Shown here in pieces: positions 2,588 through 58,373 of a DNA stretch of 64,000 nt. The number at the start of each line of letters is the position of its first letter. Position 1 is the first letter of the stretch. The translations under genes were made by a program, and so were the position numbers. Under the pieces are notes generated by a model. That model searched no databases and had not been told where the DNA came from. It saw only the letters and a list, made by a program, of their open reading frames with translations. The stretch is from SAR202 cluster bacterium (GTDB lineage: Bacteria > Chloroflexota > Dehalococcoidia > Lucifugimonadales > UBA826). Location of the stretch: assembly GCA_022447825.1 (NCBI GenBank), contig JAKUTY010000004.1, positions 6,180 through 70,179 on the forward strand, in the 5' to 3' direction.

Positions 2588-3301
2588 ATGGTTAAACACG
2601 GAAAAAGATATAACAATGCAGTTGGATTATTAGATGAAGATCGAGTCTACTCTCCTGAAGAGGCAGTCACCTTATCTAAGAAAAATGCTACTGCAAAATT
2701 TGATGAAACAGTTGAGCTGCATTTAAAAACTGGTGCAGATCCTAGGCATGCTGATCAAATGCTTAGAGGTGTGTCTCTTTTACCTCATGGAATAGGTAAA
2801 CAGATTCGTACTTTAGTTTTTTGTCAGGGTGAGGCAGTTGAGATAGCTAAACAGGCAGGATCTGATCATGTGGGAAATGATGATCTGATTCAACAAATTG
2901 AGCAAGGTTGGATAGAATTTGATGTAACTATAGCTACTCCAGATATGATGGGTAAAGTTGGTAAATTGGGACCTGTACTTGGCCGGAAAGGATTAATGCC
3001 TAATCCTAGAACTGGAACTGTTGTTTCTCCAGAAGATTTGCCTCGAGCTATTGAAGATTCAAAAAAAGGCAGAGTTGAATTTAAATTAGATAGAAATTCT
3101 ATAATTCATGTACCTATTGGGAAAGCAAGTTTTGAAGAATCTCAACTTATAGAAAATCTATCAGTTTTGATGGAAAATATTTTAAGAAATCGTCCATCAG
3201 GTGTTAAGGGTCAATTTTTGAAATCTGCATATATCACAACTACTATGGGCCCAAGTGTTCAAATTGATATTGCAGGAATTAGTGATCTTAAAGTAGAATA
3301 G
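2588..3301 (+). CDS. rplA: 50S ribosomal protein L1
   Basis: MVKHGKRYNNA... is a typical L1 N-terminus. I place the start at ATG 2588, after the rplK stop, rather than at ORF-track 2534. Confidence 0.95.
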   Translation: MVKHGKRYNNAVGLLDEDRVYSPEEAVTLSKKNATAKFDETVELHLKTGADPRHADQMLRGVSLLPHGIGKQIRTLVFCQGEAVEIAKQAGSDHVGNDDLIQQIEQGWIEFDVTIATPDMMGKVGKLGPVLGRKGLMPNPRTGTVVSPEDLPRAIEDSKKGRVEFKLDRNSIIHVPIGKASFEESQLIENLSVLMENILRNRPSGVKGQFLKSAYITTTMGPSVQIDIAGISDLKVE

Positions 3302-3368
3302 TAATCCGCCAAAGACCGAAGGTTCTCAAAAAGTATAATTCCTTCCTAGGTGTAATATATGTTTTATT

Positions 3369-3394
3369 ACCTCGGTTTTTGCCGAGGTTTTTTT
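3369..3394 (+). terminator. Intrinsic terminator/attenuator hairpin in the rplA-rplJ spacer (L10-leader position)
   Basis: ACCUCGG (3369-3375) pairs with CCGAGGU (3382-3388), with loop UUUUUG. Seven U follow the core CCGAGG arm (3388-3394), the first pairing with A3369. Lies 17 nt upstream of the rplJ ATG. Confidence 0.7.
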
Positions 3395-3411
3395 ATTTAT
3401 AGGAGAAATTT

Positions 3412-4363: not shown

Positions 4364-5626
4364 TTAAATATACGGAATTGTTTGGGGACCCTCTGGTAAC
4401 ACACATATAGATGGGTTCCCTCCGTATTTACTCTTTAAATTTTTGATTGTAGATTCAATATTTTCTATAGGTATCAAATGAGCTTTATAAATGTCTTCGT
4501 TTGAAAGGTAATCTGATTTCAAATATATGTCAGTAGTTTTTTGAATTTGCGCTTGAATTTGTACTTGCCATTGGTCCTGTTGTTTATAAGAAGGATGTTC
4601 TATCATTTTCAACAATTCTTCTGGAGAGTTTCTCGAGGTTAGGATTTCTTGAAATAAACCATGGTTTGGTATACCGTCAGAGCATTCTGCAGCGCAGACG
4701 ATGCTCCCTGAGTCTTTAGTGATCTCAAATGCAGCGGATACCCCTTTAACGCATTGGTAGAGATTCATATCAAGTGGGTATCCGTTATTTGTAGTAATAA
4801 CAATATCAAATAATTTTTCTACTTTTTGCATTGCTGTGTTTTTAACAAATTCACAAGCTTCTTGATGAACTGAAAACATTTCACCTGCAAATATGGAGGT
4901 AATAGATCGTTTTTTGTTAATTGTTACATCCAAAGTGAAATCTGCAGGAAATTTTGTGGCTATTTCTCTGATACTATCATGTATGGGGTTGCCAATAGTT
5001 TTTCCCCATCTAGAATTAGTATCTTTTATCATTTCAGATCCATGAAGCTCCATAATTGTGTCGATTCCAGCTAGCCCTGGTGCAATCATTTTAGGTCCGC
5101 CACTAAATCCCGCAAAAAAGTGAGGTTCTACAAATCCAAGTGTGATTTTGGTATCACATGACATCCATTCTTGATTGAGGAAAATGGGTATCCCATTTGT
5201 AGTGTTGCCTAGGAAATCTAATGATTCTTTGTGATCTGATCTATGATTTATAATACGATACTTTTCTAAAATTTCCTCAGAACCAAACATGTCAGATAAT
5301 TCTTCAATTGTATTTTCTCGATGTGTTCCAGTAGCGATAAAAATATTTATGTCTAAATCCTGAATTTGAGATAATTCTTTTAAAACTATTGGCAAGACCG
5401 TCTTTGTTGGTGAAGGTCTTGTAATATCACACACACTTATTCCAACTTTTTGTCCTGATTTAACTATTTCTCTTAATGGCTTAGAGTTAATAGGATTTCT
5501 AATCGCTGAAATGATTGCCCCACTCTCATCTGGCAACCCGGGAATGAATTGCGGCTCTATTACAGTAGTGTCATCTGGTAATTTGATATCTAATCCTGTT
5601 TTACCATACATAAGTGAGATATTCAT
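4364..5626 (-). CDS. larA: LarA-family nickel-pincer-dependent 2-hydroxyacid racemase/epimerase homolog
   Basis: 420 aa. ATGTHR and GFSGGPKMIAPG motifs resemble the LarA catalytic His and cofactor-tethering Lys regions (from memory of L. plantarum LarA). Confidence 0.75.
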   Translation of the reverse strand: MNISLMYGKTGLDIKLPDDTTVIEPQFIPGLPDESGAIISAIRNPINSKPLREIVKSGQKVGISVCDITRPSPTKTVLPIVLKELSQIQDLDINIFIATGTHRENTIEELSDMFGSEEILEKYRIINHRSDHKESLDFLGNTTNGIPIFLNQEWMSCDTKITLGFVEPHFFAGFSGGPKMIAPGLAGIDTIMELHGSEMIKDTNSRWGKTIGNPIHDSIREIATKFPADFTLDVTINKKRSITSIFAGEMFSVHQEACEFVKNTAMQKVEKLFDIVITTNNGYPLDMNLYQCVKGVSAAFEITKDSGSIVCAAECSDGIPNHGLFQEILTSRNSPEELLKMIEHPSYKQQDQWQVQIQAQIQKTTDIYLKSDYLSNEDIYKAHLIPIENIESTIKNLKSKYGGNPSICVLPEGPQTIPYI

Positions 5627-6732: not shown

Positions 6733-6741
6733 TGGTATAAT
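6733..6741 (+). promoter_or_regulatory. Candidate extended -10 promoter (TGgTATAAT), possibly giving a leaderless mRNA
   Basis: TGGTATAAT at 6733-6741 ends 6 nt before ATG 6748, and no SD lies in between. TATAAT-like strings are frequent in AT-rich DNA, so confidence is low. Confidence 0.3.
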
Positions 6742-6747
6742 TAAAAC

Positions 6748-7236
6748 ATGTTTAAATGGTTTCTAATTCTATTATTTATATTCACGGGGTGTTCTCAAGC
6801 TAGTTTACCTCAAATAGATGTAAAAGAAACTTTACCTGAAATTTCACTGATCACTGAATATGGAGAAATTTCTTCTAATGAATTTCTTGATGATAATAGG
6901 CCTGAATTTTTATTGTTCATTTCTCCATTTTGAGGTACTTGTGTTTCCGAGTTACGGAAATTATCTAATAATGATCAGGGCCTTTCAGATATTTCAAATA
7001 TTTATGTAATTGCTATGAATCCTGGTTATTCAATAGAAACAATTCAAAATCTTTCTAATGGACATCCTGAGTGGATATATGCTGTTCCAAAAGATAATGA
7101 TACTTTGAAAACCATCTCAGGTTTAACAAGGTCAACTAAAATTTTAGTTGACTCGCAAAATAATATAATCGAGCGGTATAGAATGGGATTTTGGGATGTG
7201 AATCAATGGATCCAACTCATAGAAGAATCCCTTTAA
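6748..7236 (+). CDS. Thioredoxin-fold (TlpA/Redoxin-like) lipoprotein with in-frame UGA, a predicted selenocysteine in a U-G-T-C redox motif
   Basis: ORFs 6748-6933 and 7015-7236 share one frame. TGA 6931-6933 is the only stop between them. Read-through gives ...EFLLFISPF-U-GTCVSELRKL..., which is the WCxxC position of TlpA/ResA-type proteins. The N-terminus has a lipobox (FIFTGC). SECIS-like hairpin downstream, and selB in the window. Confidence 0.8.
6943..6961 (+). promoter_or_regulatory. Candidate bacterial SECIS hairpin
   Basis: UUUCCG (6944-6949) pairs with CGGAAA (6955-6960), with loop AGUUA containing GU. An optional G6943-U6961 closing pair is possible. The stem starts 10 nt after UGA (6931-6933). 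Confidence 0.65.
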
Positions 7237-11129: not shown

Positions 11130-11819
11130 TTGAAAATTAACTTGTTAAGTCAATTGTCAGGGGCTGTAGAAGCTAAAGGTGTTGCAGTAGTAATAGATGT
11201 CTTTAGATGTTTTACTACTCAAGCAATTGCATTTCAAAACGGTGCTACTGAGATAATTTTGGTTGCAGAAGTTGAAGAAGCAAAAAAAATAAAAAAAGAA
11301 GGCTTGGGAGATGTTTTACTAGGAGAGGTAGGTGGGAAAAAACCAGATGGATTTGATTTTGGAAATTCTCCCACTGAAATCATAAACGAGGATTTTTCAG
11401 GAAAAACCTTGATTCACTCTACTAGAGCAGGAACAGTAGGTGCTACTTCAGTCAAAAATGCTGACATAATTTATGGAGGATCTTTCGCTATCGCGTCAGC
11501 CACTGTTGCATGTGTCAAAACCCATAAGCCCGATACTGTTAGTTTAGTATCTATGGGACTTGAAGGTAAAATTCGTACAGATGAAGATGAACAATGTGGA
11601 TTATATTTACGAAATTTGCTACAAGGGAGATTTCCAGACCCAAAAGCGGTTCGTTCATTGGTTTTGACTAGTGAAGAATCTGAGAAATACGATAATCCTG
11701 ATTTACCTCAATGGCCTGAGAGTGACAGGGAAATTGCATTAACTTTTGATTCACATCAATTTGGAATTAGAATTTTTAATGAAAAAGGAATGGTAGTTTC
11801 TCGGCCTGAATATATTTAA
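11130..11819 (+). CDS. comB: 2-phosphosulfolactate phosphatase family protein (ComB-like)
   Basis: VVIDVFRCFTT...GFDFGNSP is the ComB family signature. Start placed at TTG 11130, with AGGAG 8 nt upstream and after the ispH stop. ORF-track start 11070 overlaps ispH. Confidence 0.8.
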   Translation: MKINLLSQLSGAVEAKGVAVVIDVFRCFTTQAIAFQNGATEIILVAEVEEAKKIKKEGLGDVLLGEVGGKKPDGFDFGNSPTEIINEDFSGKTLIHSTRAGTVGATSVKNADIIYGGSFAIASATVACVKTHKPDTVSLVSMGLEGKIRTDEDEQCGLYLRNLLQGRFPDPKAVRSLVLTSEESEKYDNPDLPQWPESDREIALTFDSHQFGIRIFNEKGMVVSRPEYI

Positions 11820-13696
11820 TCTTGTTTGATATCAAAAAATGTATTTACTAATTCTTCTTTTTGTTTTTGTGTTATGTCTTTCTTGTTGTTTTGCAGAGAT
11901 CTAAGAAACTTATTCACTATACAAACTCCTAATACAAACCCTGAACCGATTACATATATTAAACTCATGGAAATAAATCCATTTACTAGATCCTCTATGA
12001 TCCATTTAGCTACAAAATCCAAGCGTTCTCCAACTAATAATTGTGTAGAAAAGTATGGAGTTCCTTCTGTAATTAATTGAGTGATAGCTAAATTAATTTG
12101 TGATTCAATTAATGGGTATGCATATATTGGGAAAATGAAATTCCAAATTACAAAAATCACTAAACTAGAGATTAATAAAGATGAAGATGCCCAAATAATT
12201 TTGTTGATCAGCATTTTTGCACCCAAAAATCCAAAAATTAAGGCTATCAATATCGGAATTAAGTACAAGAGTATTTGAAAAATGCCAGATAAAGCTAAAA
12301 GACTTCTAATACTTTCTATACTGTTATGTAAAGCTTGTCCTTGAGGTTGTGAGGTTAAAATTTGTTTGTAGTCTTCATCAGAAAATTTAAAACCACCTGT
12401 TAAATAATCTCGTATTTCATTAAATTGTTGAAGATTGCCTGAATCAGATAAAAGTTGTTCAAAATCAGATTCCGTAAAAATATACCCATTTTTCATTACA
12501 TCTCTTACAGATTGTAATTGATCCATTGCATCGGGAGAAATAGATAGTAAAGTTTTTTCGTCAAAATTTATTGAGTCTGGAATATTAGAAAGAATTAAGG
12601 GTTCAATTTGAGACATTACGTTCGCCGTAATTGCATCAGTATCTATAGTTTGTTCAATTAGAGGGTTTAAAGAATCAAATCTTTCTTCAAGTTGGTCTTT
12701 AAGCAAAACTGAAATTCCGTCTACAGAATTTTTTTTAACTGGACTTAATGGAATGACAATATTGAATTCATCTTTTGTTCCTAATATGTACATAGATACA
12801 TCATCTATTACGGATTCAGTTGTAGATTGAATCCATTCAGGGGTAGCACTAGATTTTAATGTTGTAATCAGCTGATCTTCAGGTAGAGAAATTTGATATG
12901 GAAGTTCAGGTATATTTTTTATAGCTGATGAAATTGCAGGAGTGGCTACATTATCAAATATAGAATTGTAAGTATCACCTTGGGACAGTATAGTTTTTGT
13001 TTCAGTAATAGCAGACTGCGAAAATTCTTGAGTATTGATTTTGATAGTGAATGTGTCTGTTCTTCCAACCATATATGGAGTTATTTCAAAAAGTGCACTA
13101 TCAATTTGATTTGTCACCCATTTTTCAGTAATTACATTTTGTACAGAATTCATTAATGAGTCTTCAGAAATTTGAATTCCTAAAGGTAATTCAGTTTTTG
13201 AAATACCTTTTAATTGTGGTCTGATTTGAGTCTCAAATAACCAATCATAAATTTCAGCATTTTTAATGAGTTGACTTATTTCAAGGGATGCAGCCTCTAT
13301 CCTTTCATCGACAGGGATTTGAACAGAGAAAGAGTCAGATTGACCTACAAAGTACGTACCTACTTCAGTAAAAGAGGTCTCTGTATTTGATTGTAACCAA
13401 TCTACAGGAATTATACGATTTAGTGACTCTATAATTTCATCATTCGACAAATTTTTAGATAATATCCACACAGGATCATTGGACTCACTGGTATTTGGGG
13501 GTCTACCTTCTTCTAGTACCGACTTTGGAACATCTTTTAGTATGAAATTGTAAAGGTCACCGGAAGAAATAATTTCTAAGTAGTAGGTAGGGTTAAGTGC
13601 CCTAACTGTGATTTGATTTGTAAAAATTGTTGCTTGTAAAACAACTACTAGTAACAAAAATATGGGTGTTCCAAAAAATCTTCTTATCCAAATCAT
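11816..13696 (-). CDS. Hypothetical large membrane protein with three internal ~95-aa repeats
   Basis: 626 aa. N-terminal TM, an extracytoplasmic region with a triplicated W(L/V/I)Q/N-x-ExY(F/M/I)(V/L)Gx-D-F-x-I module, then a C-terminal cluster of hydrophobic helices. I recognise no family. Confidence 0.7.
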   Translation of the reverse strand: MIWIRRFFGTPIFLLLVVVLQATIFTNQITVRALNPTYYLEIISSGDLYNFILKDVPKSVLEEGRPPNTSESNDPVWILSKNLSNDEIIESLNRIIPVDWLQSNTETSFTEVGTYFVGQSDSFSVQIPVDERIEAASLEISQLIKNAEIYDWLFETQIRPQLKGISKTELPLGIQISEDSLMNSVQNVITEKWVTNQIDSALFEITPYMVGRTDTFTIKINTQEFSQSAITETKTILSQGDTYNSIFDNVATPAISSAIKNIPELPYQISLPEDQLITTLKSSATPEWIQSTTESVIDDVSMYILGTKDEFNIVIPLSPVKKNSVDGISVLLKDQLEERFDSLNPLIEQTIDTDAITANVMSQIEPLILSNIPDSINFDEKTLLSISPDAMDQLQSVRDVMKNGYIFTESDFEQLLSDSGNLQQFNEIRDYLTGGFKFSDEDYKQILTSQPQGQALHNSIESIRSLLALSGIFQILLYLIPILIALIFGFLGAKMLINKIIWASSSLLISSLVIFVIWNFIFPIYAYPLIESQINLAITQLITEGTPYFSTQLLVGERLDFVAKWIIEDLVNGFISMSLIYVIGSGFVLGVCIVNKFLRSLQNNKKDITQKQKEELVNTFFDIKQD

Positions 13697-14044: not shown

Positions 14045-14458
14045 CTATTTAAAAAACTTGATTGGCCAAATTCGGATTAGTACAATTTCTGAAATGCTAT
14101 TTTTCTTGATTGAACCTATTTCTCTACTGTCTTTTGAACTTTGTCGCCTATTGTCACCTAGTACATAAAAATTATTGTAGGGGATTGTCAGATCATGGAA
14201 ATCTGTGTAGTTGGATTCTGGTAAACCTTTTAAATAATCATTTGATATTGTCAATTTATTTAAATGTACTTGCCCCTCAGTTATGAGAATATGGTCTCCC
14301 TCAATACCAATAATTCGTTTTATGATTAATGTGTTTTGAAAATTAAAAATTACGATTTGATTTCTTTTGAATTTCTTTGATTTTTTTGTTAATACATAGT
14401 CCCCATTTTTTAATGTAGGCTGCATACTATTATTCTTGATTTTACGGATTTTAATCAT
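14045..14458 (-). CDS. sodX: S26 signal-peptidase-like protease, putative NiSOD maturation protease SodX
   Basis: SMQPTL (catalytic Ser box) and GDNRRQSSKDSR boxes. Divergently adjacent to sodN. Confidence 0.8.
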   Translation of the reverse strand: MIKIRKIKNNSMQPTLKNGDYVLTKKSKKFKRNQIVIFNFQNTLIIKRIIGIEGDHILITEGQVHLNKLTISNDYLKGLPESNYTDFHDLTIPYNNFYVLGDNRRQSSKDSREIGSIKKNSISEIVLIRIWPIKFFK

Positions 14459-14553: not shown

Positions 14554-15021
14554 ATGAATCTGTTATCTTCTATCGAACAACTATTCGCTATTAAATCTGT
14601 TGAGGCACACTGTGATGTTCCTTGTGGAATCTATGATCCAATTACTGCAAAAATTGCAGCCCAAACTGTTTTGAAAATGGCAGTTAGATTGGAAGCTGTC
14701 GAAATGCCTCCTTCCTCAATTAATACACCAAATAGTGTTGCAAGATACGTTGCTGTAAAAGAAGAACATGCCGAAGCTGTTAAACATGATCTAAGTGTTT
14801 TGTGGTCAGATTACTTTAAACCTGAGCACTTGGAAAAATATCCTAATCTTCATGAATTATTTTGGAATGCTAATAAATTGGCCGGAGCCAATAAGCAGGG
14901 AGTCAGTTCAGAATCTGCCCAAAAGCTAGTAGATACTGTAGATGAGATTGCTTCAATATTTTGGGCATCTAAGGGCGTGGATTACTCTGATCCTAATTCG
15001 TCTGTAAGGTATGGAGCCTAA
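14554..15021 (+). CDS. sodN: Nickel superoxide dismutase precursor
   Basis: Pro-peptide MNLLSSIEQLFAIKSVEA followed by the HCDVPCGIYDP nickel-hook motif. Confidence 0.93.
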   Translation: MNLLSSIEQLFAIKSVEAHCDVPCGIYDPITAKIAAQTVLKMAVRLEAVEMPPSSINTPNSVARYVAVKEEHAEAVKHDLSVLWSDYFKPEHLEKYPNLHELFWNANKLAGANKQGVSSESAQKLVDTVDEIASIFWASKGVDYSDPNSSVRYGA

Positions 15022-16313: not shown

Positions 16314-16353
16314 TAATATTAATTAAAAATATGCTATATAATAATCTAAAATA

Positions 16354-16533
16354 ATTGCGTTGATCAGGATTAGTAACTATTACAGATATTGAAAGAGAGC
16401 TGGATAAGCTGTGAACCAGTGAATTGAGTGTAGTGAATGGACCTGTTAGCAATATAGAAATAAGAGCTTTTCTTTTGAAAAGAAATAGGGTGGCACCGCG
16501 GTATATATCGTCCCTTGAGGGCGATATTTTTTT
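16354..16533 (+). promoter_or_regulatory. T-box riboswitch leader, tryptophan specifier (UGG)
   Basis: Stem I is closed by AUUGC (16354-58) and GCAAU (16449-53). Specifier context GAA-UGG-A has UGG at 16438-40. T-box sequence AAUAGGGUGGCACCGCGG at 16484-16501. Terminator 16505-16527 plus U6 at 16528-33. Possible -10 TATAAT at 16337-42. Confidence 0.85.
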
Positions 16534-16544
16534 GGGAAAAATTT

Positions 16545-17570
16545 ATGACAAATAAACAGATCAGGGTTTTTAGTGGTGTACAGCCTAGTGGAGATCCTCA
16601 ATTAGGAAATTATCTAGGTGCTTTTAAAGGATGGGTTAAAAGACAATCTGAAAAAGACAATTTTTTCTGTATTGTTGATTTACATGCATTAACTGTTACT
16701 CCTTCACCTGAAGATCTCAAAAAACAAACTAGGGAATTGGCCGCAGTATTGTTTGCTTGTGGAATAAACCCAGATCAAAGTACGCTTTTTGTTCAAAGTC
16801 ACGTTACAGCCCATGCTGAGGGGTGTTGGTTATTAAATTGTGTAACTCCCATTGGATGGCTCGAAAGAATGACACAGTTTAAAGATAAGTCAGAAGGTAA
16901 AGAGAGAGTTTCAACTGGGTTATTGGATTATCCTGTATTAATGGCAGGAGATATTCTTTTGTACGATGCTGATGAAGTGCCTGTAGGGGAAGATCAAAAA
17001 CAACATGTTGAACTCTCAAGAGATATTGCTGAGAGATTTAATAGATTGTATGGCGAAACTTTTAAAATCCCTCAACCTATTATTCCTGAAATAGGTGGCA
17101 GAGTGATGGGCTTGAATGATCCAAATGTAAAAATGTCAAAAAGCTTTTCTGATATTAGAGGTCATGCCATTAGGATTTTGGATGATCCTAAGGAGATTGA
17201 AAGATCTTTTATGAGAGCAGTCACAGATTCATCAAATGAAATTGTTTTTAGTAATTCTCCTGAAAAAGCAGGGGTCAATAACATGTTGGGTATATATAAA
17301 GTTATTACAGAAAAATCTGAAAAGGAAGTAGAAAAAGATTTTGCTTCAGCTAGGGGCTATGGTGATTTAAAAAAAGCAGTAGCAGAAGTTGTAATTGAAG
17401 AACTTCGTCCAATTAGAGAAAAATATTTGGACTTGATTCAAGATGTAAGTGAATTAGACAGATTATTGTCTGTAGGAGCTCAACAAGCTTCATCAATTTC
17501 TACTCCAAAACTTGACCAAATGAAAGATAAAATGGGATTAATTTTACCAATAAGTAAGGAATTGTATTAA
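16545..17570 (+). CDS. trpS: Tryptophan--tRNA ligase
   Basis: VFSGVQPSG...GNYLG (HIGH region) and KMSKS present. Start taken at ATG 16545, downstream of the T-box terminator, rather than ORF-track TTG 16515. Confidence 0.95.
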   Translation: MTNKQIRVFSGVQPSGDPQLGNYLGAFKGWVKRQSEKDNFFCIVDLHALTVTPSPEDLKKQTRELAAVLFACGINPDQSTLFVQSHVTAHAEGCWLLNCVTPIGWLERMTQFKDKSEGKERVSTGLLDYPVLMAGDILLYDADEVPVGEDQKQHVELSRDIAERFNRLYGETFKIPQPIIPEIGGRVMGLNDPNVKMSKSFSDIRGHAIRILDDPKEIERSFMRAVTDSSNEIVFSNSPEKAGVNNMLGIYKVITEKSEKEVEKDFASARGYGDLKKAVAEVVIEELRPIREKYLDLIQDVSELDRLLSVGAQQASSISTPKLDQMKDKMGLILPISKELY

Positions 17571-19021
17571 TGTACTCCCCAAGTTTAGAAGAAGTTGAAA
17601 AACTTTCCAGTAGAGGAAATTTGATTCCAATTTTTCTTGAAGTTGATGCTGACTTAGAAACTCCTGTGTCTGCGTATATGAAGGTTTCAAGATCTCCTTA
17701 TTCTTTCTTGTTTGAAAGTGTAGAAGGTGGAGAACACCTTGCAAGATTTAGTTTTATTGGGACTGAACCTGAATCAGTAATTGTTACAGGACCTAATCAG
17801 AAAGATGGAGAAGTTGACCCCTTAATATTACTTGAAAAAACTCTTTCGCAATATCAATTGGTTGACACAGGAGATTTGCCTCGTTTTAGAGGTGGCTCAG
17901 TTGGTTATTTGTCTTACGAGACTATTAGGTATTTTGAAGAAATAAATGTTCCTAAAGAAGATATTCTTCTTGTTCCAGAATCCATATTAATGATGACAAA
18001 AACGTTTTTAGTATTTGATCATGTTAGACATAAAATTCGTGTGGTTAGCCATGCTTATTTACAAGATGACGATATTGAGGGTGCATATAATCAAGCAATT
18101 GGAGAGATTGATAAAATTGTACAACGATTGAATTCACCTTTGAATCCTATGGATATACCTAGAAAATCTGGATATTCTAGTGGTCCAGTGGTATCTAATA
18201 TGGATGAAGAATTTCATAAAGAGATGGTAGAAAAATGTAAAAAGTATGTTGTTGATGGAGATGTTATTCAAGTAGTGGTTTCTCAGAGATTTTCTAAGAA
18301 AACATCGGCACATCCTTTTCATATATATAGATCTCTCAGAGCAATAAACCCCTCACCATATATGTATTATTTAGATTTGAATGGATTTCAAATAGTGGGT
18401 GCATCTCCAGAAATGATGGTGCAAGTTGAAAACAGCACAGTATCTATGCACCCTATTGCAGGTACTAGACCACGTTCTCAGGATTTCAATGAAGATAACA
18501 GATTAGAAGAAGAACTTAAAAATGATGAAAAAGAAAAAGCTGAACATACCATGTTATTGGACTTAGGGAGAAATGATGTTGGTCGAGTGAGTCAACCGGG
18601 TTCAGTTAATGTCACTGAGATTATGGGTATTGAAAGATATTCTCATGTAATGCATTTAGTATCTAATGTTGAAGGTAAACTAAAGGACGATCTTTCGATT
18701 TTTGATGCTTTTAGAGCATGCTTTCCAGCAGGAACAGTTTCAGGGGCTCCAAAAATTAGAGCTATGGAAATTATTGCAGAATTAGAAAAAGATAAAAGAG
18801 GACCTTATTCAGGCAGCGTTGGGTATTTTGATTTTGCAGGTAATATGGATACAGCAATTTCTATTAGGACTATGGTTTATAAAGAAGGTATAGCTCATGT
18901 TCAGGCTGGGGGTGGAATAGTTTTTGATAGCAAACCATCTGTAGAATTTGATGAAACTGTGCATAAATCGAATGCATTGATTCGAGCTATCGAATCAGCT
19001 GAAATGAAGTTAGATTTATAG
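17570..19021 (+). CDS. trpE: Anthranilate synthase component I
   Basis: 483 aa with LESVEGG-like FESVEGGEH and GAPK/GGGIV chorismate-binding motifs. The ATG overlaps the trpS stop (TAATG 17568-17572). Confidence 0.95.
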   Translation: MYSPSLEEVEKLSSRGNLIPIFLEVDADLETPVSAYMKVSRSPYSFLFESVEGGEHLARFSFIGTEPESVIVTGPNQKDGEVDPLILLEKTLSQYQLVDTGDLPRFRGGSVGYLSYETIRYFEEINVPKEDILLVPESILMMTKTFLVFDHVRHKIRVVSHAYLQDDDIEGAYNQAIGEIDKIVQRLNSPLNPMDIPRKSGYSSGPVVSNMDEEFHKEMVEKCKKYVVDGDVIQVVVSQRFSKKTSAHPFHIYRSLRAINPSPYMYYLDLNGFQIVGASPEMMVQVENSTVSMHPIAGTRPRSQDFNEDNRLEEELKNDEKEKAEHTMLLDLGRNDVGRVSQPGSVNVTEIMGIERYSHVMHLVSNVEGKLKDDLSIFDAFRACFPAGTVSGAPKIRAMEIIAELEKDKRGPYSGSVGYFDFAGNMDTAISIRTMVYKEGIAHVQAGGGIVFDSKPSVEFDETVHKSNALIRAIESAEMKLDL

Positions 19022-19029
19022 GAGAATGA

Positions 19030-19605
19030 ATGATATTACTATTGGATAATTACGATAGTTTTACTTACAACATATATCAGTATATGTCTGAGTTAGGAGC
19101 TGATGTGAAAGTTGTTAGGAATGATAAAATTTCATTGTCTGAAATTAAAGATTTGAACCCTGAAAAAATTGTGATATCCCCTGGACCTTGTACTCCTCAA
19201 AAGGCAGGAATTTCAAATGATGTTATCAAAACTTTTGGAGAATATGTTCCCGTACTGGGGGTTTGTTTGGGACATCAATGTATTGGTGAATCTTTTGGTG
19301 GTATTGTTATGGGTGCTGGAGAGATCGTTCATGGAAAAACTTCTCTGATTAATCACGATGGGAAAGGAGTATTTTCAGGAATACCAAGTCCCTTTCGAGC
19401 GATACGATACCATTCCTTAGTAATCCAAAAGGATCATTTGCCTAATGAACTAGAGGTATCTGCTTGGACAGATAATGGCATAATTATGGGTGTTAGGCAC
19501 AAGAGCTTGCCAGTAGAAGGAATTCAATTTCATCCTGAGTCTATTATGACCGAATTTGGTAAAGAATTATTATCTAATTTCTTGAATATGAAAAAGGAAA
19601 TGTAA
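19030..19605 (+). CDS. trpG: Anthranilate synthase component II (glutamine amidotransferase)
   Basis: ILLLDNYDSFTYN, GVCLGHQ and FHPES, the class-I GATase triad motifs. Confidence 0.95.
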   Translation: MILLLDNYDSFTYNIYQYMSELGADVKVVRNDKISLSEIKDLNPEKIVISPGPCTPQKAGISNDVIKTFGEYVPVLGVCLGHQCIGESFGGIVMGAGEIVHGKTSLINHDGKGVFSGIPSPFRAIRYHSLVIQKDHLPNELEVSAWTDNGIIMGVRHKSLPVEGIQFHPESIMTEFGKELLSNFLNMKKEM

Positions 19606-20618
19606 TGAAATCATATTTGGAAAAACTTTCTTCAAATTATGACCTTACTTTCGATGAATCTGCTGATGCTATGCAATTAATTATGTCAGGTCATGCTACT
19701 CCTGCTCAATTTGGATCTTTTGTTACAGCCTTAAGGATGAAAGGTGAAACTGTCGATGAAATTTCTGGGATGGCTTCAGTAATGAGAAAAATGTCATTAT
19801 CTGTAAAGAATAATGATGATTTATTAGACACTTGTGGGACTGGAGGAGATGGTCTTGGAACATTTAACATTTCTACTGCCGCAGCATTTGTATCTGCAGG
19901 TATAGGAATTAAAATTGCCAAACATGGCAATAGAGCTATGTCCAGCCACACAGGAAGCGCTGATGTTTTAGAATCTTTGGGCATTAATATTAATCTAACT
20001 CCTGATCAGGTTTATGAGTGCATTAAAATTTCTAATTTCGGTTTTATGTTTGCTCAAGGGTTTCATCCAGCTATGAAATATGCGGGACCTTCCCGAAGAG
20101 AGATTGGAATTCGAACAGTATTTAACATTCTAGGACCCTTGACTAATCCGGCGGGAGCAAAAAAACAACTGATTGGTGTATCTGATCCTCAAGTTGGAGA
20201 TTTAATGGCACAATCTTTGAGAAAATTAGGATCTGAATCCGCGTTGATAGTACACGGAAATGATGGTTTAGATGAAATAACTGTGTCTGATTCTTCGAAA
20301 ATGTGGATTTTGAAGAATGGAGATATTGCAACTGAAACTTTTTCTCCAGAATCTCTTGGTGTTACCATTCAATCTTTATCAAAACTTAAGGTCAATAATT
20401 CTGAAGAGAGTGCGCAAATGATTGAATCTGTTCTCGAAGGAGCTAATGGTCCTGCAAGAGATATAGTTCTTCTTAATAGTGCTGCAGCGATTTTGATTTC
20501 AGGACATTCAGATAACTTTGAAGATGCTTATGTAAAAGCGCAGAGTTCAATAGATAATGGCTTGGCAATCAAAACATTAAATTTAGTTAGAGACTTTTCA
20601 CAAACATTAAATGATTAA
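19605..20618 (+). CDS. trpD: Anthranilate phosphoribosyltransferase
   Basis: DTCGTGGDG and KHGNRA motifs. Confidence 0.95.
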   Translation: MKSYLEKLSSNYDLTFDESADAMQLIMSGHATPAQFGSFVTALRMKGETVDEISGMASVMRKMSLSVKNNDDLLDTCGTGGDGLGTFNISTAAAFVSAGIGIKIAKHGNRAMSSHTGSADVLESLGININLTPDQVYECIKISNFGFMFAQGFHPAMKYAGPSRREIGIRTVFNILGPLTNPAGAKKQLIGVSDPQVGDLMAQSLRKLGSESALIVHGNDGLDEITVSDSSKMWILKNGDIATETFSPESLGVTIQSLSKLKVNNSEESAQMIESVLEGANGPARDIVLLNSAAAILISGHSDNFEDAYVKAQSSIDNGLAIKTLNLVRDFSQTLND

Positions 20619-29701: not shown

Positions 29702-30322
29702 ATGACTAATAAAATACAATTAGATCAAAATGGGTTAATCCCAGCAATTGCACAACATGCTGAGACTTCTGAAGTGTTGATGATGGGATATATGAATCCT
29801 GGTTCTATTAAAAGAACACTAGAGAGCGGTGAAGTATGGTTCTATAGTAGAAGTCGTTCTGATTTATGGCATAAAGGCGAAATATCAGGAAACTTTCTTA
29901 GAACAAAACAGATTATTGTTGATTGTGATGGAGATACGTTGCTCTTAAAAGTAATTCCTGATGGTCCTACTTGCCATACAGGGGAAAAATCTTGTTTTTC
30001 TACACAATTGTCAAATTATGAGTTCGTAGATTTTGATAAAGGATCTAATGTGATTGAAGAACTTTTTGCAGTGATTCAAGATCGTAAATTAAACCCATCA
30101 AATAAATCTTATACTTCACAACTTATATCAGATGGAATAGAAAGAATTGCCCAAAAAATTATCGAAGAAGCTGGTGAAGTTGCTATTGCTGCAGTAACTA
30201 GGCAAGAAAATGAAACTGCTGAAGAAATTTCAGATTTGTTGTATCACACGCTAGTTTTATTATCAGAAATGGAGATGAATCCAGAAAAAGTATGGGAAGT
30301 CTTACGTAGCAGAAGAACTTGA
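29702..30322 (+). CDS. hisI: Bifunctional phosphoribosyl-AMP cyclohydrolase/phosphoribosyl-ATP pyrophosphatase
   Basis: GLIPAIAQ...CHTG (HisI) followed by the EEAGE...DLLYH HisE module. Confidence 0.93.
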   Translation: MTNKIQLDQNGLIPAIAQHAETSEVLMMGYMNPGSIKRTLESGEVWFYSRSRSDLWHKGEISGNFLRTKQIIVDCDGDTLLLKVIPDGPTCHTGEKSCFSTQLSNYEFVDFDKGSNVIEELFAVIQDRKLNPSNKSYTSQLISDGIERIAQKIIEEAGEVAIAAVTRQENETAEEISDLLYHTLVLLSEMEMNPEKVWEVLRSRRT

Positions 30323-31198
30323 AGCGTCTTTGTCAGCTTCTATCGCTGATTGCATAGCTATAACTGCAACTTCGATTTGGTCATCATCTGGTTGTCTTGT
30401 AGTCAATGACTGAAGCCATAAACTTGGAGCTGAGATTGCCTTCATAATAAAATTGTTTTGATAGATACTGCTGAGTCTTATAAATTCATAGCTTAGACTT
30501 GCTATAAATGGAACCAAAACGATCCTAGACCCCACTACTATAAGTAAAGATTGTCGGGGAATTAATATGAATACTATCACTGCAATCAACATAATAGTTA
30601 ATAGAAATGCTGTACCGCATCTGGGGTGTGCTGTAGGATATTTTTTGATATTAGCAAGGTTTAACTCAAGGTTGTTTTCTTGGGCATGAACAGTCATATG
30701 CTCTGCTCCGTGATACATGAATACTCTTTTAATATCGGGCATCAACCCAATTACATAAATATATCCTATAAAAATTAGTAATCTAACAATTCCTTCGATA
30801 ATATTGCTGAAAATGTTTGATCCTAAAAACCCTTCAAATGGTGTACTAATTAATAATGGCAACATAAAGAAAAGGCCTATAGCTAACGTAAATGAAATAG
30901 TTATCATCAGCACTATAGACGCCCTATTAGGATCAGAATTTTCTTCTTCCATTGCTACTGCTGAAGAAAAATTTAATGCATTCATGCCTATAATCAATGT
31001 TTCTATTAAAGCAATTATTCCACGGATTAAAGGAGTCTTTCTGTATTTGGAGCGAAAAATATTTGCAATTGGTTTTATTTGGGTTTTTATTTCGCCCGAT
31101 GGAGATCTTACAGCAACTGATACGTTATTTTGCCCACGTATCATTACACCTTCTAGAACAGCTTGACCGCCATATGTGGGTGCTTGGTTTGAACTCAC
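30302..31198 (-). CDS. DUF1385-family membrane protein
   Basis: YGGQAVLEGVMIRG N-terminus and YHGAEH motif, with multiple TM helices. Its 3' end overlaps the convergent hisIE by 21 nt. Confidence 0.75.
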   Translation of the reverse strand: MSSNQAPTYGGQAVLEGVMIRGQNNVSVAVRSPSGEIKTQIKPIANIFRSKYRKTPLIRGIIALIETLIIGMNALNFSSAVAMEEENSDPNRASIVLMITISFTLAIGLFFMLPLLISTPFEGFLGSNIFSNIIEGIVRLLIFIGYIYVIGLMPDIKRVFMYHGAEHMTVHAQENNLELNLANIKKYPTAHPRCGTAFLLTIMLIAVIVFILIPRQSLLIVVGSRIVLVPFIASLSYEFIRLSSIYQNNFIMKAISAPSLWLQSLTTRQPDDDQIEVAVIAMQSAIEADKDASSSSAT

Positions 31199-49014: not shown

Positions 49015-50193
49015 ATGAACAAACCACTGCAAAGTTTTTTTACCCATTTAGAATGTACATATTGTGGAGAAAAATTTGATAAAAATGTTGTAAATAGACT
49101 ATGTCAGATTTGTGGGAAAGTTTTGTTTGCAAAATATGATTTATTAAGCGCAGCACAATTCATTAATCCTAAAATTATTAAAAATCGTCCTCCTAATATG
49201 TGGAGATATTTTGAGGTGATGCCAGTGATTGATCCTCAATATGTGATTTCACTAGGAGAAGGTTTTACTCCTATTTTGAATTCTACAAATTTGGGTGATG
49301 AAATTGGAATTAAAGATTTACTTATTAAAGATGAAGGTTTAAATCCTACTGCTTCATTTAAGGCTAGAGGCCTATCTGCGGCTGTCTCAAAAGCTAAAGA
49401 ATTAGGTATTAAGTCTATTACTATGCCTTCTGCTGGAAATGCGGCAGGAGCCATGAGTTCATATGCGGCGAGAGCTGGTATTAAGTCTTATGTGTTCATG
49501 CCTAAAGATGCTCCATTTGCTAATAAAGAAGAAGCAGTGATTACAGGCGCTACCGTGGAGTTGATTGATGGGTTAATTAGTGATGCTGGAGTCATATCTA
49601 GAGAGAAAGCTCAACAAAATAATTGGTTTGATGTATCTACTTTACAAGAACCATATAGAGTAGAAGGCAAAAAGACGATGGGATATGAAATTGCAGAACA
49701 ATTGAATTGGGAAATTCCTGATGTCATTATTTACCCCACTGGTGGGGGTACAGGCATTGTAGGTATCTGGAAAGCTTTTGATGAGATGGAACAGATGGGT
49801 TGGATTGGAACCAAAAGACCTAGAATGTACGCTGTTCAAGCAGAAGGTTGTGCTCCTATTGTAAAGGCTTTTTTGAATAATGATGAGTTCGCTGAACCAT
49901 GGATTAATGCAAATACTTATGCATCTGGCATACGCGTGCCGTCAGCAATTGGAGATTATTTGATTTTAGATGCCTTAAGAAAAAGTAATGGTGGAGCGCT
50001 TACAGTTTCAGATAAAGAAATGAAAAGTATGACTAAGGTTATTTCAGAATTAGAAGGATTATTTGTTTGTCCAGAAGGTGCCGCAACTGCAGTAGCTTTG
50101 AAAAAACTGGTTTCGTCTCATGAAATTGATGCAGATGATCAAGTATTACTTCTTAATACAGGATCAGGATTGAAATATTTAGAATATAAATGA
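49015..50193 (+). CDS. Threonine synthase-family PLP enzyme with N-terminal zinc ribbon (ThrC, or possibly a cysteate-synthase-like paralog)
   Basis: CTYCG...CQICG ribbon, PTASFKARG PLP-lysine motif and PTGGGTG loop. Confidence 0.75.
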   Translation: MNKPLQSFFTHLECTYCGEKFDKNVVNRLCQICGKVLFAKYDLLSAAQFINPKIIKNRPPNMWRYFEVMPVIDPQYVISLGEGFTPILNSTNLGDEIGIKDLLIKDEGLNPTASFKARGLSAAVSKAKELGIKSITMPSAGNAAGAMSSYAARAGIKSYVFMPKDAPFANKEEAVITGATVELIDGLISDAGVISREKAQQNNWFDVSTLQEPYRVEGKKTMGYEIAEQLNWEIPDVIIYPTGGGTGIVGIWKAFDEMEQMGWIGTKRPRMYAVQAEGCAPIVKAFLNNDEFAEPWINANTYASGIRVPSAIGDYLILDALRKSNGGALTVSDKEMKSMTKVISELEGLFVCPEGAATAVALKKLVSSHEIDADDQVLLLNTGSGLKYLEYK

Positions 50194-50200
50194 GGATGAA

Positions 50201-52054
50201 GTGTTTGTAATTGGAACAGCAGGACATGTAGATCACGGAAAATCTAGCTTAGTAAATATTTTGTCTGGAATTGATCCTGATAGATGGCAGGAAGAAAAAG
50301 ATCGAGGAATGACTATAGATTTAGGGTTTGCTTGGTTCAAGCTTCCAAGTGGTAATGAAGTGAGTATTATCGATGTTCCTGGTCATGAAAAATTTGTAAA
50401 CCATATGCTTGCAGGAGTGGGGGGGATAGACCTTGCTTTAATGATAATTGCTGCAGATGAATCCATTATGCCTCAGACATTAGAGCATTTTCACATTTTA
50501 GATTTATTAGGGGTTTCTAAATCAATTATTGTTCTGACTAAAACAGATTTAGTTGATAAAGAATGGTTGAATTTAGTAGAGATAGAGTTGCAAGAATTTT
50601 TAGCTGGAACTAATTGGAAGGATTCACCTATCGTTCCCCTGTCAAATCGTACTAAAGAAGGAGTAAATCATTTAATTCATGAAATAGATAAGTGTTTAAA
50701 TATAATTGATACCCCAAAAAATATTGGGCTACCCAAAATATATGTCGATCGTTCCTTTTCAGTTAAAGGATTTGGTACTGTAGTTACAGGAACTTTAATC
50801 AATGGATCTGTTAAAGTGGGAGATGATTTGCAAATCATGCCTCAAGGAACTAAGACTAAAATTAGAGGAATACAAACTCATCAATCTAGCCATGAAGAAA
50901 TTAATCCTGGGACGAGAGTTGCTCTAAATTTGGCGGGTATTGATAAAAATGCTATCTCTAGAGGGGATTTATTAGTAAAACCTGAAACTACAGAAAATAC
51001 TTATGTTGTAGATGCATCATTTGTATTACTTAAAGAATATCCTAATGAACTTCGACATAATTTAAATGTCACTTTTCATGTTGGAAGTAGAGAATTGTTA
51101 GCGAAATTACGATTACTTGAAAAAAGTGTTCCTGTACCTGGAAAAGAACACTTTATTCAGTTTAAATTTGAAAATCCACAACCTATCTCTAAAGGTGAAA
51201 GATATGTGATTAGATCTAACATGAAAACTATTGGCGGTGGGATTATTTTAGATTTAAATGCTAAACGACATAAAAGAGGTGATGATAATTTGATTAAAAA
51301 ATTAGCATCTCTAAAAGAGGGATCTGTAAGTGCAAAAATAGTAAATTCATTAAATGAAAAAAATATAATGACATTCAATGCACTTTTGAGAGATTTGGAT
51401 ATTGATTTTGATGAATTGATTGAAGTGATTGAAGCATTAAAAAAAGAATCTAAGTTGATTCAACTTGGCGACGATTATATTGAATCGGAATTTATTCTTA
51501 ATCAATATCGATTAGAAAAAATTAAAGAAATTGAAAATTGTCTAATTTTATTTCATAAGGAATTTCCCCTTAGAAAAGGAATGAGTTCTCAATCTCTTAA
51601 AATTAATTTAGGAATTAATGAAATAATTTTCACGTATCTTATTGAATTCATGAAACATAAGAACATTTCTGAAACTTCAGGAATTATTTCATTAATAGAT
51701 TTTGTTCCTGAATTGAATAATGCCCAACTAGATTTTGTTAAATCTATGATAGAGGCTTTGAATCTAAACCCATTTAATGTAGAGCACATTACAAAATTTG
51801 ATGATGAAATTTTGAATTTTCTTTTAGTGGAAAATCTATTAGTTAAAATTGATGATGAATTTATAGTCACGCAGGAATTTTTCCAAACGATTCTGTATTC
51901 AGTTTCTGAACATATTCAAATAAATCAATCAATTACAGTTGGTGAATTCAGAGACTTATTCAATACAAGTAGAAAATTTGCTTTATTAATTTTAGAACAT
52001 CTTGATGCTAAGCAAGTCACAAAAAGGGTAGGGGATGTTCGTATATTAAGATAG
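50201..52054 (+). CDS. selB: Selenocysteine-specific translation elongation factor SelB
   Basis: MFVIGTAGHVDHGKSSLV, DVPGHEKF and TKTDL G-domain, plus a ~270-aa C-terminal winged-helix-like extension (617 aa total). GTG start with a GAGGA SD overlapping the upstream stop. Confidence 0.88.
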   Translation: MFVIGTAGHVDHGKSSLVNILSGIDPDRWQEEKDRGMTIDLGFAWFKLPSGNEVSIIDVPGHEKFVNHMLAGVGGIDLALMIIAADESIMPQTLEHFHILDLLGVSKSIIVLTKTDLVDKEWLNLVEIELQEFLAGTNWKDSPIVPLSNRTKEGVNHLIHEIDKCLNIIDTPKNIGLPKIYVDRSFSVKGFGTVVTGTLINGSVKVGDDLQIMPQGTKTKIRGIQTHQSSHEEINPGTRVALNLAGIDKNAISRGDLLVKPETTENTYVVDASFVLLKEYPNELRHNLNVTFHVGSRELLAKLRLLEKSVPVPGKEHFIQFKFENPQPISKGERYVIRSNMKTIGGGIILDLNAKRHKRGDDNLIKKLASLKEGSVSAKIVNSLNEKNIMTFNALLRDLDIDFDELIEVIEALKKESKLIQLGDDYIESEFILNQYRLEKIKEIENCLILFHKEFPLRKGMSSQSLKINLGINEIIFTYLIEFMKHKNISETSGIISLIDFVPELNNAQLDFVKSMIEALNLNPFNVEHITKFDDEILNFLLVENLLVKIDDEFIVTQEFFQTILYSVSEHIQINQSITVGEFRDLFNTSRKFALLILEHLDAKQVTKRVGDVRILR

Positions 52055-52387
52055 ATTAGCACTTGGGGAAATTTGACTTATTAAAGTTTCAGTAATTATT
52101 TTTTTTACCTCTTGTGAGTTAGAGCAAACATTTTCAATAGACTTTTGGAATAGAATGATTTTTTCAGGGATTTGTTTTTCATACCCATAACAATTTTTAT
52201 GAGGAATTTTTTCATGTAGGCTAAGGAGTTCTAAAGGGTCTTCAACTCCTGTGCCTAAAAGTTCTTCAGAAGAAGGTGTTTGCTTTAATTCAACTTCAAT
52301 GTTTTTGCACTTGATTCTGATTGAGGAATCTAGATCTTTAATAGATTCCTCAATCAATAAGTTGAAATCAGTTTGAGTAAATTCCAT
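52046..52387 (-). CDS. Hypothetical protein, resembles the DUF1025/zincin-like family but lacks HExxH
   Basis: 113 aa. The F-x-LIEESI...NIEVEL...EKIILFQKSI layout recalls small zincin-like proteins. The C-terminus reads TLISQISPS where HEIGHH is expected. Confidence 0.5.
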   Translation of the reverse strand: MEFTQTDFNLLIEESIKDLDSSIRIKCKNIEVELKQTPSSEELLGTGVEDPLELLSLHEKIPHKNCYGYEKQIPEKIILFQKSIENVCSNSQEVKKIITETLISQISPSANLS

Positions 52388-52480
52388 AAGCCCTCCAAGA
52401 TCAATTTATCATGATTTGTTATCGATTCATTAATTATGTTTAATTAGTTGATTGTTTGAATCACACAATGTATTCTACCT

Positions 52481-52501
52481 GAGTCTACTAAATGTAGACT
52501 C
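52481..52501 (+). promoter_or_regulatory. Perfect 8-bp inverted repeat, a candidate operator just downstream of a putative promoter
   Basis: GAGTCTAC-taaat-GTAGACTC. A possible promoter is TTGATT (52448-53), 17 nt, then TATTCT (52471-76). Lies 59 nt upstream of the thiolase-like gene. Confidence 0.4.
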
Positions 52502-52559
52502 GCGGGTTCACTTGTTTTTGAGTTTCCTGGTCCTAATATATACATGGAGGTATTAATAA

Positions 52560-57565: not shown

Positions 57566-58162
57566 TTATTCTTTAGATAAAATCTTCATATCACTCACTA
57601 ATTTTTCTGGATCTATTGGCGAATTATGTACAACTTTTGCAGATCCGTTTTTGTTGAAAATATATACAGGTGAAGTATGAATTATTCTGTTTTTTGCAGC
57701 TAAGTTTTTGCTTAATTTTTCCATCGGATGTGTATTAATAGGATTGATAAAATAATTCTTCCAAATGGGCTCTAGCGAATTTTTATTACCTGTAATGTAT
57801 GACCAGTTAGATGTGAGTTCCCATTTTTCTATGAAATTATATACAGCTTCTTCTGTGTCATTTTCAGGATCTACACTGATGAGTATTACAGGAGTTTCTT
57901 TTTCGGAATCATTTAAAATCAATGATTGTTTAATTTGAGATGTTACTATTGGGCAAACATTTGAGCATTCGGTAAAAACAAATGTCAATAAAAATATATC
58001 TTGATTCATGTTTGCTGTATCTATAGATTGCCCTTGATGATCAATTACTTTGAATGGAATTGTATTATGATTATTGAGAGGATTTCCTTGAATTACGTCA
58101 AGATCGAGACAAGAAAAAAAAGACGTTATTAATAAAAATAAAAGAAGTAGTTTGAATTTCAA
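57566..58162 (-). CDS. SCO1/SenC copper chaperone lipoprotein
   Basis: Lipobox FFSC, a thioredoxin fold with the CSNVCP (CxxxC) motif, and adjacency to the oxidase genes. Confidence 0.85.
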   Translation of the reverse strand: MKFKLLLLFLLITSFFSCLDLDVIQGNPLNNHNTIPFKVIDHQGQSIDTANMNQDIFLLTFVFTECSNVCPIVTSQIKQSLILNDSEKETPVILISVDPENDTEEAVYNFIEKWELTSNWSYITGNKNSLEPIWKNYFINPINTHPMEKLSKNLAAKNRIIHTSPVYIFNKNGSAKVVHNSPIDPEKLVSDMKILSKE

Positions 58163-58169
58163 AAAAGAA

Positions 58170-58373
58170 TTATGAATTTGTTCGTTTTTCTAAAAAGTAT
58201 GCGATTACGGGTGTAGATATTAATAAAACTAAACCTAGAAGAATGACTCCTATAGTTCCAAGGGCAGTGTGGTGATGTAGTTGATAAAAAATGAATCCTA
58301 AAACAATTGCATATACTGCTATTGCTACAAAAGATACGAGGGGAACTAAAATAGATAAAACAAAATTATTCAC
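58170..58373 (-). CDS. Small two-TM membrane protein of unknown function in the oxidase cluster
   Basis: 67 aa. GTG start preceded by AGGAG 6 nt upstream. Two hydrophobic helices flank a QLHHHT loop. Confidence 0.6.
   Translation of the reverse strand: MNNFVLSILVPLVSFVAIAVYAIVLGFIFYQLHHHTALGTIGVILLGLVLLISTPVIAYFLEKRTNS

Follow-up and report, generated by a model that had tools for sequence, protein, structure and literature searches.

A probable lipid-anchored UxxC selenoprotein of TlpA/ResA type encoded by a SAR202 bacterium

Bacillus subtilis ResA, Bradyrhizobium TlpA and the CcmG (DsbE) proteins are extracytoplasmic, membrane-tethered reductases of cytochrome c and oxidase maturation, and reductases of this type classically act on cytochrome c, the CuA oxidase and Sco proteins. 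The related Etrx lipoproteins of Streptococcus pneumoniae serve in methionine-sulfoxide repair. For the insertion of selenocysteine (Sec) at a UGA codon, the reference case is Escherichia coli fdhF, in which a minimal 17-nt upper stem-loop of the selenocysteine insertion sequence (SECIS) is recognised by SelB. Here we describe a gene at positions 6748–7236 of a 64-kb stretch of DNA from a SAR202 cluster bacterium (contig JAKUTY010000004.1; the whole stretch is referred to as the window, and all positions are counted within it). Comparative sequence analysis makes it very probable that this is a single SAR202 gene for a membrane-anchored, exported TlpA/ResA-like reductase, in which an in-frame UGA is decoded as Sec by means of a SECIS hairpin.

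Selenoproteins with a UxxC motif have been known from marine metagenomes since 2005, under names such as “Prx-like protein” (Prx, peroxiredoxin) and “thiol-disulfide isomerase-like protein” (PMC1088965). One of them, “Prx-like 3”, is enriched in marine samples and reaches pfam08534 only at E-values above 0.001 (Zhang & Gladyshev 2008, PMC2398784). Selenoprotein families of the cd02966 group are treated in a 2026 review (PMC13188914), a further review is available (PMC9312934), and exported DsbA/DsbG-like selenoproteins appear in the same published lists (PMC1088965, PMC2398784, PMC13188914). The first-pass annotation of this DNA had called an exported Sec protein unusual, which overstated the case, as TlpA-, Prx- and DsbA-like UxxC selenoproteins have long been catalogued in marine bacteria (PMC1088965, PMC2398784, PMC13188914). 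Literature on SAR202 together with selenocysteine yielded nothing relevant, and Chloroflexi are not mentioned by Peng et al. (2016).

The reading frame and its in-frame TGA

Two open reading frames (ORFs), 6748–6933 and 7015–7236, lie in one frame, (7015−6748) being divisible by 3. Reading of the sequence confirmed that the TGA at 6931–6933 is the sole stop in the 489-nt frame ahead of the terminal TAA (7234–7236), as the first-pass annotation had reported:

6748–7236, plus strand: complete coding sequence of the predicted selenoprotein, 162 codons (Sec at codon 62) followed by TAA
6931–6933, plus strand: UGA codon 62, predicted to be read as Sec, the first residue of U-G-T-C; TGA in 53/53 family loci, aligned with the first Cys of CxxC

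The read-through product begins MFKWFLILLFIFTGC and later contains FISPF-[UGA]-GTCVSELRKL. Protein, genome and metagenome searches gave full-length homologs that are 47–98% identical to the window protein. Eight full-length homologs (49–96% identity) were returned by a word-indexed protein search, all written with a “W” at the UGA position; the contig DNA of all eight reads TGA, and the “W” is an artefact of gene models built with genetic code 4 on short contigs. In a survey with one genome for each GTDB species, the gene was located in 10 species, all of them represented by SAR202/Dehalococcoidia/Chloroflexota metagenome-assembled genomes (MAGs) or single-cell genomes, and all with TGA. AG-426-M11 and AC-647-P02 are examples of SAR202 single-cell genomes with the gene. 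A metagenome scan was seeded on EFLLFISP, the peptide upstream of the UGA, and added 30 loci as a sample that is blind to the hairpin described below. An exhaustive hidden Markov model search of 1.84 billion representatives added N-terminal fragments ending exactly at the UGA as well as the distant “W” forms and the Cys forms described below. In all, TGA stands at codon 62 in 53/53 related loci, drawn from SAR202/Dehalococcoidia genomes and from marine metagenomes, one of these loci being a U-A-T-C variant; instead of homologs that terminate at this position, we found an in-frame TGA that is conserved and homology that runs across it.

Two distant “W” forms (P0012 and P0022), at 23–26% identity, also have TGA in their DNA. 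Public ENA and Logan protein sets write “W” for Sec in P0001–P0008, P0012 and P0022 (loci L001–L010, L021 and L022). The Sec forms at L021 (286–837) and L022 (495–1016), 23–26% identical to the window protein, lie on contigs of 27–28% G+C from unidentified organisms; the window has 34% G+C. The protein P0033 also shows a “W” (GWGAC) and is known from its protein record alone.

Relatives with Cys at the UGA position, which were to be expected from the first-pass annotation, were found with a CxxC aligned to the U-G-T-C (P0023, P0024 and others). The motif is FFFSPY-CGTC in P0023, where the codon at the Sec position is TGT, CPxC in P0024, P0025, P0026, P0029, P0030 and P0034, and CFAC in P0027. 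In the joint alignment, U takes the place of the first Cys of CxxC, and neither the second Cys nor the Glu three residues further on varies. A pair of Sec and Cys homologs is the classical criterion for a selenoprotein (PMC1088965), and the alignment of U with the Cys of CxxC homologs provides such a pair.

The public annotation of this gene is fragmentary. GenBank records of SAR202/Chloroflexota MAGs have its halves deposited as separate hypothetical proteins (e.g. MAR86511.1/MAR86510.1, KAA1284097.1 and MFL2804124.1), and in one source the N-terminal part is wrongly named “outer membrane biogenesis lipoprotein LolB”. The present analysis corrects these records: the neighbouring hypothetical proteins, one of them under a wrong name, are parts of one gene. 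The cluster of N-terminal fragments occurs on >300 contigs, indicating that the gene is common in marine data. Ten of 48 family loci have Thr or Ile in place of the Met at 7015 with which the second ORF begins; the second ORF therefore has no conserved start, and the gene is one unit. That this fragment also lacks a Shine–Dalgarno (SD) sequence of its own, as noted in the first-pass annotation, was borne out.

The hairpin downstream of the UGA

An inverted repeat, TTTCCG-AGTTA-CGGAAA at 6944–6960, starts 10 nt past the TGA. It had been proposed as a SECIS in the first-pass annotation and was recovered here as a slightly longer helix:

6943–6961, plus strand: candidate SECIS hairpin with a 7-bp stem (closing pair G6943–U6961; UUUCCG/CGGAAA) and loop AGUUA at 6950–6954, also encoding V-S-E-L-R-K; based on folding, covariation and codon freeze

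The 7-bp helix forms in context in the minimum free energy (MFE) fold of the single sequence, and the RNAalifold consensus returns the same seven pairs unaided, which answers the earlier call for a stable structure in context. On its own the hairpin folds at −6.2 kcal/mol. The apical loop lies 16 nt past the UGA and has a G, in agreement with bacterial SECIS elements in spacing (16–37 nt from UGA to apical loop; PMC10778597), in the smallness of the loop and in the G expected within it (PMC1088965).

Codon choice within the hairpin differs from that in the rest of the gene. Its S-E-L-R residues are encoded by TCC GAG TTA CGG in 20/20 distinct coding sequences, while every other invariant amino acid column with a degenerate code uses two to five synonymous codons across the same sequences. 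By the codon usage of the window, TCC (5.8% of Ser), GAG (16% of Glu) and CGG (2% of Arg) are rare and TTA (47% of Leu) is common, giving a joint probability of ~9e-5 for this combination in a single sequence.

Changes in the stem are confined to its outer pairs. Over 27 distinct sequences the inner five pairs and the AGUUA loop are invariant; one outer pair is UA in 22, CG in three, GC in one and UG in one, and is never unpaired, and the other is AU in 13, GU in seven, GC in four and something else in three. The covariation score of the outer pairs was reached in 0/500 shuffles, and pairing falls from 98% to 15–57% once the 3′ arm is slid. The 11-nt core of the hairpin occurs 52 times in 349 kb, each time 13 nt past the TGA of this gene and nowhere else. 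The distant Sec forms (L021 and L022) keep the AGUUA loop, the CCG/CGG core and the spacing, with one U-A to G-C swap. P0023, the closest Cys form examined at the DNA level, has unrelated sequence at the hairpin position. Because rare codons are frozen only here, the outer pairs covary and a Cys homolog is without the hairpin, the comparative data argue that selection acts on the RNA itself, beyond the protein code, to keep the hairpin.

SelB carrying Sec-tRNA(Sec) would bind this hairpin, by its apical loop with G and U at 16 nt past the UGA, when the ribosome arrives at that codon, and Sec would be inserted. Rfam returned no model for the hairpin at gathering or permissive thresholds, a result that is uninformative since no bacterial SECIS model matched. 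The comparative tests thus support the core of what the first-pass annotation had put forward, namely that one gene encodes an exported protein of thioredoxin fold, with Sec first in UxxC and a SECIS downstream.

Fold, decoding machinery and alternative readings

A profile including the Cys relatives matched solved structures of the TlpA/ResA group in the PDB, namely 2m72 (E-value 1e-19), Etrx 2yp6 (4e-15) and ResA 4nmu (8e-15), and also StoA, CcmG/DsbE and DsbF. U62, C65 and E68 align with C74, C77 and E80 of ResA, and the motif U62-G-T-C65-V-S-E68 follows the C-x-x-C-x-x-E pattern of ResA and TlpA. The UGA thus falls on ResA Cys74, as expected from the first-pass annotation, which had placed it at the first Cys of TlpA/ResA-type proteins. 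The residues concerned are:

6940–6942, plus strand: codon of Cys65, the predicted resolving Cys of UxxC; invariant in alignments A1, A2 and A3, on ResA Cys77
6949–6951, plus strand: codon of Glu68, three residues past Cys65; invariant in A1, A2 and A3, equivalent to ResA Glu80
7129–7140, plus strand: R128-S-T-K131 loop at the position of the cis-Pro loop, without proline; from alignment with ResA L-P-T-T

The AlphaFold2 (AF2) model, made on P0001 (96% identical, with W at the Sec site), is a single thioredoxin-fold domain with a predicted local distance difference test (pLDDT) score of 85.9, in which a helix at 63–74 begins right after U62. In Foldseek comparisons the target TM-score was 0.76–0.80 for ResA and 0.73–0.80 for ResA, DsbE and other TlpA-like structures. 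Both L-P-T-T of ResA and I-P-A of 2m72 align on the invariant R-S-T-K, so that the cis-Pro is replaced by Ser/Thr; GLTRSTKIL is invariant in the close family and S-T-K is retained by the Cys relatives. On the model and the profile matches, the protein is a divergent thioredoxin fold of the TlpA/ResA type.

The N-terminus of the window protein reads MFK, WFLILLFIF and F-T-G-C15:

6748–6792, plus strand: predicted signal peptide and lipobox (MFKWFLILLFIFTG-C15), with Cys15 as the predicted lipidated mature N-terminus; basic n-region and hydrophobic h-region

A Cys with G, A, S or N before it is found in 8/8 close homologs and in most distant ones. Relative to the lipobox consensus [LVI][ASTVI][GAS]C, position −3 is often non-canonical in the family (F, T or C). 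The invariant Cys after a hydrophobic segment fits a lipoprotein signal peptide. Such a peptide would route the unfolded chain through the Sec translocon, after which Cys15 would be lipidated and the domain tethered outside the cytoplasmic membrane. There, Sec62 would be the exposed nucleophile and Cys65 the resolving residue, with formation of a selenenylsulfide and with Glu68 tuning reactivity. By comparison with its relatives, the most likely function is that of an extracytoplasmic, lipid-anchored selenol/thiol-disulfide reductase.

The window also encodes the elongation factor for Sec:

50201–52054, plus strand: selB, selenocysteine-specific elongation factor; Pfam and NCBIfam

Its product has the Pfam domains GTP_EFTU, GTP_EFTU_D2, Beta-barrel_SelB and SelB-wing_3 and scores 345 bits against the NCBIfam selB equivalog TIGR00475 (cut-off 242), in line with the earlier assignment of SelB to these coordinates. 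Within window positions 49015–52559, selB begins 7 nt past the threonine synthase gene thrC, and selA and selC are not adjacent; the 500 bp after selB (52055–52559) hold no ORF of at least 120 aa and no detected tRNA. The PALP gene upstream of selB is the threonine synthase and not SelA. TGA terminates 13 of the 64 ORFs of the window, including the genes that flank selB, and the three stops cited earlier as examples of normal TGA termination are indeed TGA. Among the other genes of the window, none with an in-frame TGA was convincing.

A number of results weigh against the interpretation as a Sec-containing ResA/TlpA-type reductase. selA, selD and the gene for tRNA-Sec (selC) were not found within the 64-kb window, and tRNA-Sec was not found in about 285 kb of related loci that were scanned. 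The 66-nt region folds no more stably than shuffled sequences (z = −0.45); thermodynamics was set aside as evidence and comparative evidence used instead. The profile of the close family alone matched no solved structure in the PDB, and the Cys relatives were needed to reach TlpA/ResA. The protein alone stays below the Pfam thresholds, with 15.7 bits for AhpC-TSA (cut-off 26) and 14.2 bits for Redoxin (cut-off 26.6), and an NCBIfam scan gave no meaningful match. There is no canonical cis-proline, and the chemistry may therefore differ from that of ResA/TlpA. Finally, the gene neighbourhoods fall into two unrelated housekeeping types of synteny with no CcdA, ResBC, Msr or Sco partner.

The main rival retains Sec and changes the chemistry: the protein would be a genuine selenoprotein acting as a Prx-like peroxidase at the cell surface, with Sec62 as the peroxidatic residue and Cys65 resolving the selenenic acid. 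We regard this as unlikely. The best Foldseek E-values do include archaeal peroxiredoxins, with a query TM-score of ~0.65, but the target TM-score is 0.44–0.50 for Prx and 0.76–0.80 for ResA-type structures, and the profile search puts TlpA/ResA/Etrx-type proteins far above Prx. R128 stands three residues ahead of a strand, like the Arg of the Prx motif R-x-x-F-I-I-D, yet it is Gln in most Cys relatives and is thus not a family-wide catalytic Arg. The weak Pfam matches are to AhpC-TSA and Redoxin, the cis-Pro loop of thioredoxin-type reductases is absent, and the literature classes similar marine UxxC proteins as “Prx-like”. However, the PxxxTxxC motif is absent as well, since in F-I-S-P-x-U-G-T-C the P stands at −5 from C65 instead of −7 and position −3 lacks a T, whereas C/U-x-x-C-x-x-E is exactly as in ResA, TlpA and CcmG. 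A reductase is thus the preferred reading of the redox centre.

That the UGA is decoded without Sec, either as Trp/Gly under an alternative genetic code or by SelB-independent near-cognate read-through giving Trp/Cys, is very improbable. Public protein sets do show “W” at position 62, but this is the gene-model artefact described above over a TGA in the DNA. The failure to see selA, selD and selC in the window would suit such decoding, while the dedicated selB, the 13 of 64 window ORFs that end in TGA and the lack of another convincing in-frame TGA stand against it. Codon 62 moreover falls where the fold has its catalytic Cys, a site at which Trp or Gly would abolish the redox centre, and the hairpin that follows has the spacing and the small, G-containing loop of a bacterial SECIS. 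The readings as a pseudogene or as two separate small genes, in which a nonsense mutation or sequencing error has split a Cys-type redoxin into ORFs of 61 and 73 residues, agree with the standard GenBank annotation of separate halves but were rejected as next to impossible, being effectively refuted by the same TGA in 53/53 independent loci (single-cell genomes, MAGs and many metagenomes) at 23–98% protein identity, with strong protein-level conservation persisting in both halves, a downstream Met that is Thr/Ile in 10/48 loci and without SD, and halves that are modelled as one folded domain.

Expression, genomic context and comparison with known systems

The region ahead of the selenoprotein gene is short, and the start of a divergent M20 peptidase gene lies 30 nt away:

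6733–6741, plus strand: extended −10 promoter-like box TGGTATAAT, candidate promoter of a leaderless mRNA; read directly and conserved in the close subclade

TGGTATAAT is followed by 6 nt (TAAAAC) and the ATG at 6748. An ORF start upstream of 6748 is impossible because of the in-frame TAA at 6742–6744. The window and loci L001, L007–L009, L011 and L012 share the conserved arrangement TTGGTATAAT, 6 nt, ATG, with a spacer that varies in sequence, and a TAnnnT box stands at the same spacing in some distant members. No SD-like motif precedes the ATG at 6748, compared with 32 of the 64 ORFs of the window that have one; this and the box ending 6 nt before the ATG agree with the first-pass annotation. 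A consensus scan of the start region listed no −35 match. A leaderless mRNA from the box at 6733–6741 is plausible on this pattern, and transcription probably begins at or beside the ATG.

Gene order around the selenoprotein gene falls into different arrangements. In the group that includes the window it is larA, M20 peptidase, the gene itself and nadE. In another group it is CoA-transferases, cmk, plsC, glmS, the gene itself, a coiled-coil protein and a GAF cyclase; the conserved downstream neighbour there is a cytoplasmic coiled-coil protein. As the neighbourhoods differ and lack a redox partner, any assignment of a client is a guess. The likely clients would be exported Cys-containing proteins, and a CcdA-type membrane electron donor is presumed. 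Candidates in the window come from a caa3-type oxidase cluster on the minus strand (57566–63963) that encodes UbiA/CtaB, CoxII with a fused cytochrome c domain, CoxI, CoxIII, CtaG and Sco1/SenC; the proposed clients among these are CoxII, which carries the cytochrome c domain, and Sco1. It is a long shot that the selenoprotein is the ResA/TlpA equivalent maturing the cytochrome c/caa3/Sco system of SAR202 and is made from a leaderless mRNA. Should this be true, the aerobic respiration of an abundant deep-ocean clade would depend on selenium supply, and Sec recoding would work on a transcript without a 5′ leader.

Other features of the window were recorded in passing. The LarA-type lactate racemase homolog (4364–5626) adjoins the M20 peptidase gene, and contig L007 adds a LarC-type Ni-insertion gene upstream. 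Upstream of rplJ-rplL there is a ribosomal protein L10 leader (3291–3403). The nickel superoxide dismutase gene sodN (14554–15021) has a divergent signal-peptidase-I-like gene beside it (14045–14458), which also matches the Ni-SOD maturation protease, though less strongly. A T-box leader (104 bits; 16351–16518) immediately precedes the gene of a class-I Trp/Tyr-type tRNA synthetase, which is followed on the same strand by trpE, a 191-aa ORF and trpD, an arrangement (16515–20618) that looks like a T-box-controlled trpS-trp operon. A 626-aa ORF (11816–13696, minus strand) and a 298-aa ORF (30302–31198, minus strand) have no Pfam or NCBIfam match, and the former is syntenic in the two closest SAR202 genomes (L011 and L012).

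The selenoprotein introduces no new principle, UxxC thioredoxin-fold selenoproteins being the commonest kind in marine bacteria. It would mean that SAR202, an abundant dark-ocean clade, uses Sec in a predicted cell-surface redox protein. Missed selenoproteins can be mined cheaply by looking in code-4 gene models for a “W” where a CxxC motif should have its first Cys. The candidate SECIS of 19 nt, kept across proteins that are 23–26% identical with changes limited to the outer two pairs, makes a compact candidate for studies of SelB–SECIS specificity.

Comparison with fdhF of E. coli shows a similar layout, a short stem-loop of similar size inside the coding sequence just 3′ of the UGA, with G-U in the apical loop; the SAR202 hairpin differs in sequence, has no bulged U in the stem and carries a 5-nt AGUUA loop. 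On the protein side, Etrx1 and Etrx2 (2yp6, 4hqs and 4hqz) are lipoproteins with a TlpA-like thioredoxin domain outside a single membrane, the arrangement predicted for the SAR202 protein, and the profile match to 2yp6 spans query residues 1–157, predicted signal peptide and domain together. Unlike the SAR202 protein, Etrx has Cys and a cis-Pro, and its genes occur with ccdA and msrAB2, none of which is near the SAR202 gene.

The SAR202 protein shares with ResA, TlpA and CcmG (DsbE) the fold, the C-x-x-C-x-x-E pattern and a predicted tether to the outer face of the membrane, and the organism encodes the c-type cytochrome, CuA and Sco clients. It differs in having Sec for the N-terminal Cys, G-T between the redox residues with no preceding Trp, and Ser/Thr for the cis-Pro, and in an identity of 12–15% to the solved structures. 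Its gene is not beside ccdA, resBC or ccs, and the anchor is predicted to be a lipid and not a transmembrane helix.

The published marine UxxC families, compared by description, come closest. They differ from the SAR202 protein in its assignment to SAR202/Dehalococcoidia, its predicted lipobox, its lack of a cis-Pro and its near-invariant SECIS of 17–19 nt. They share with it a UGA that stands first in the UxxC of a TlpA/Prx-like fold, Cys homologs with CxxC, a small downstream stem-loop with G in the loop, a marine origin and weak or sub-threshold matches to Pfam Redoxin/AhpC-TSA. By this comparison, again by description, the selenoprotein belongs to a known class, the UxxC proteins of TlpA/Prx-like fold from marine bacteria.

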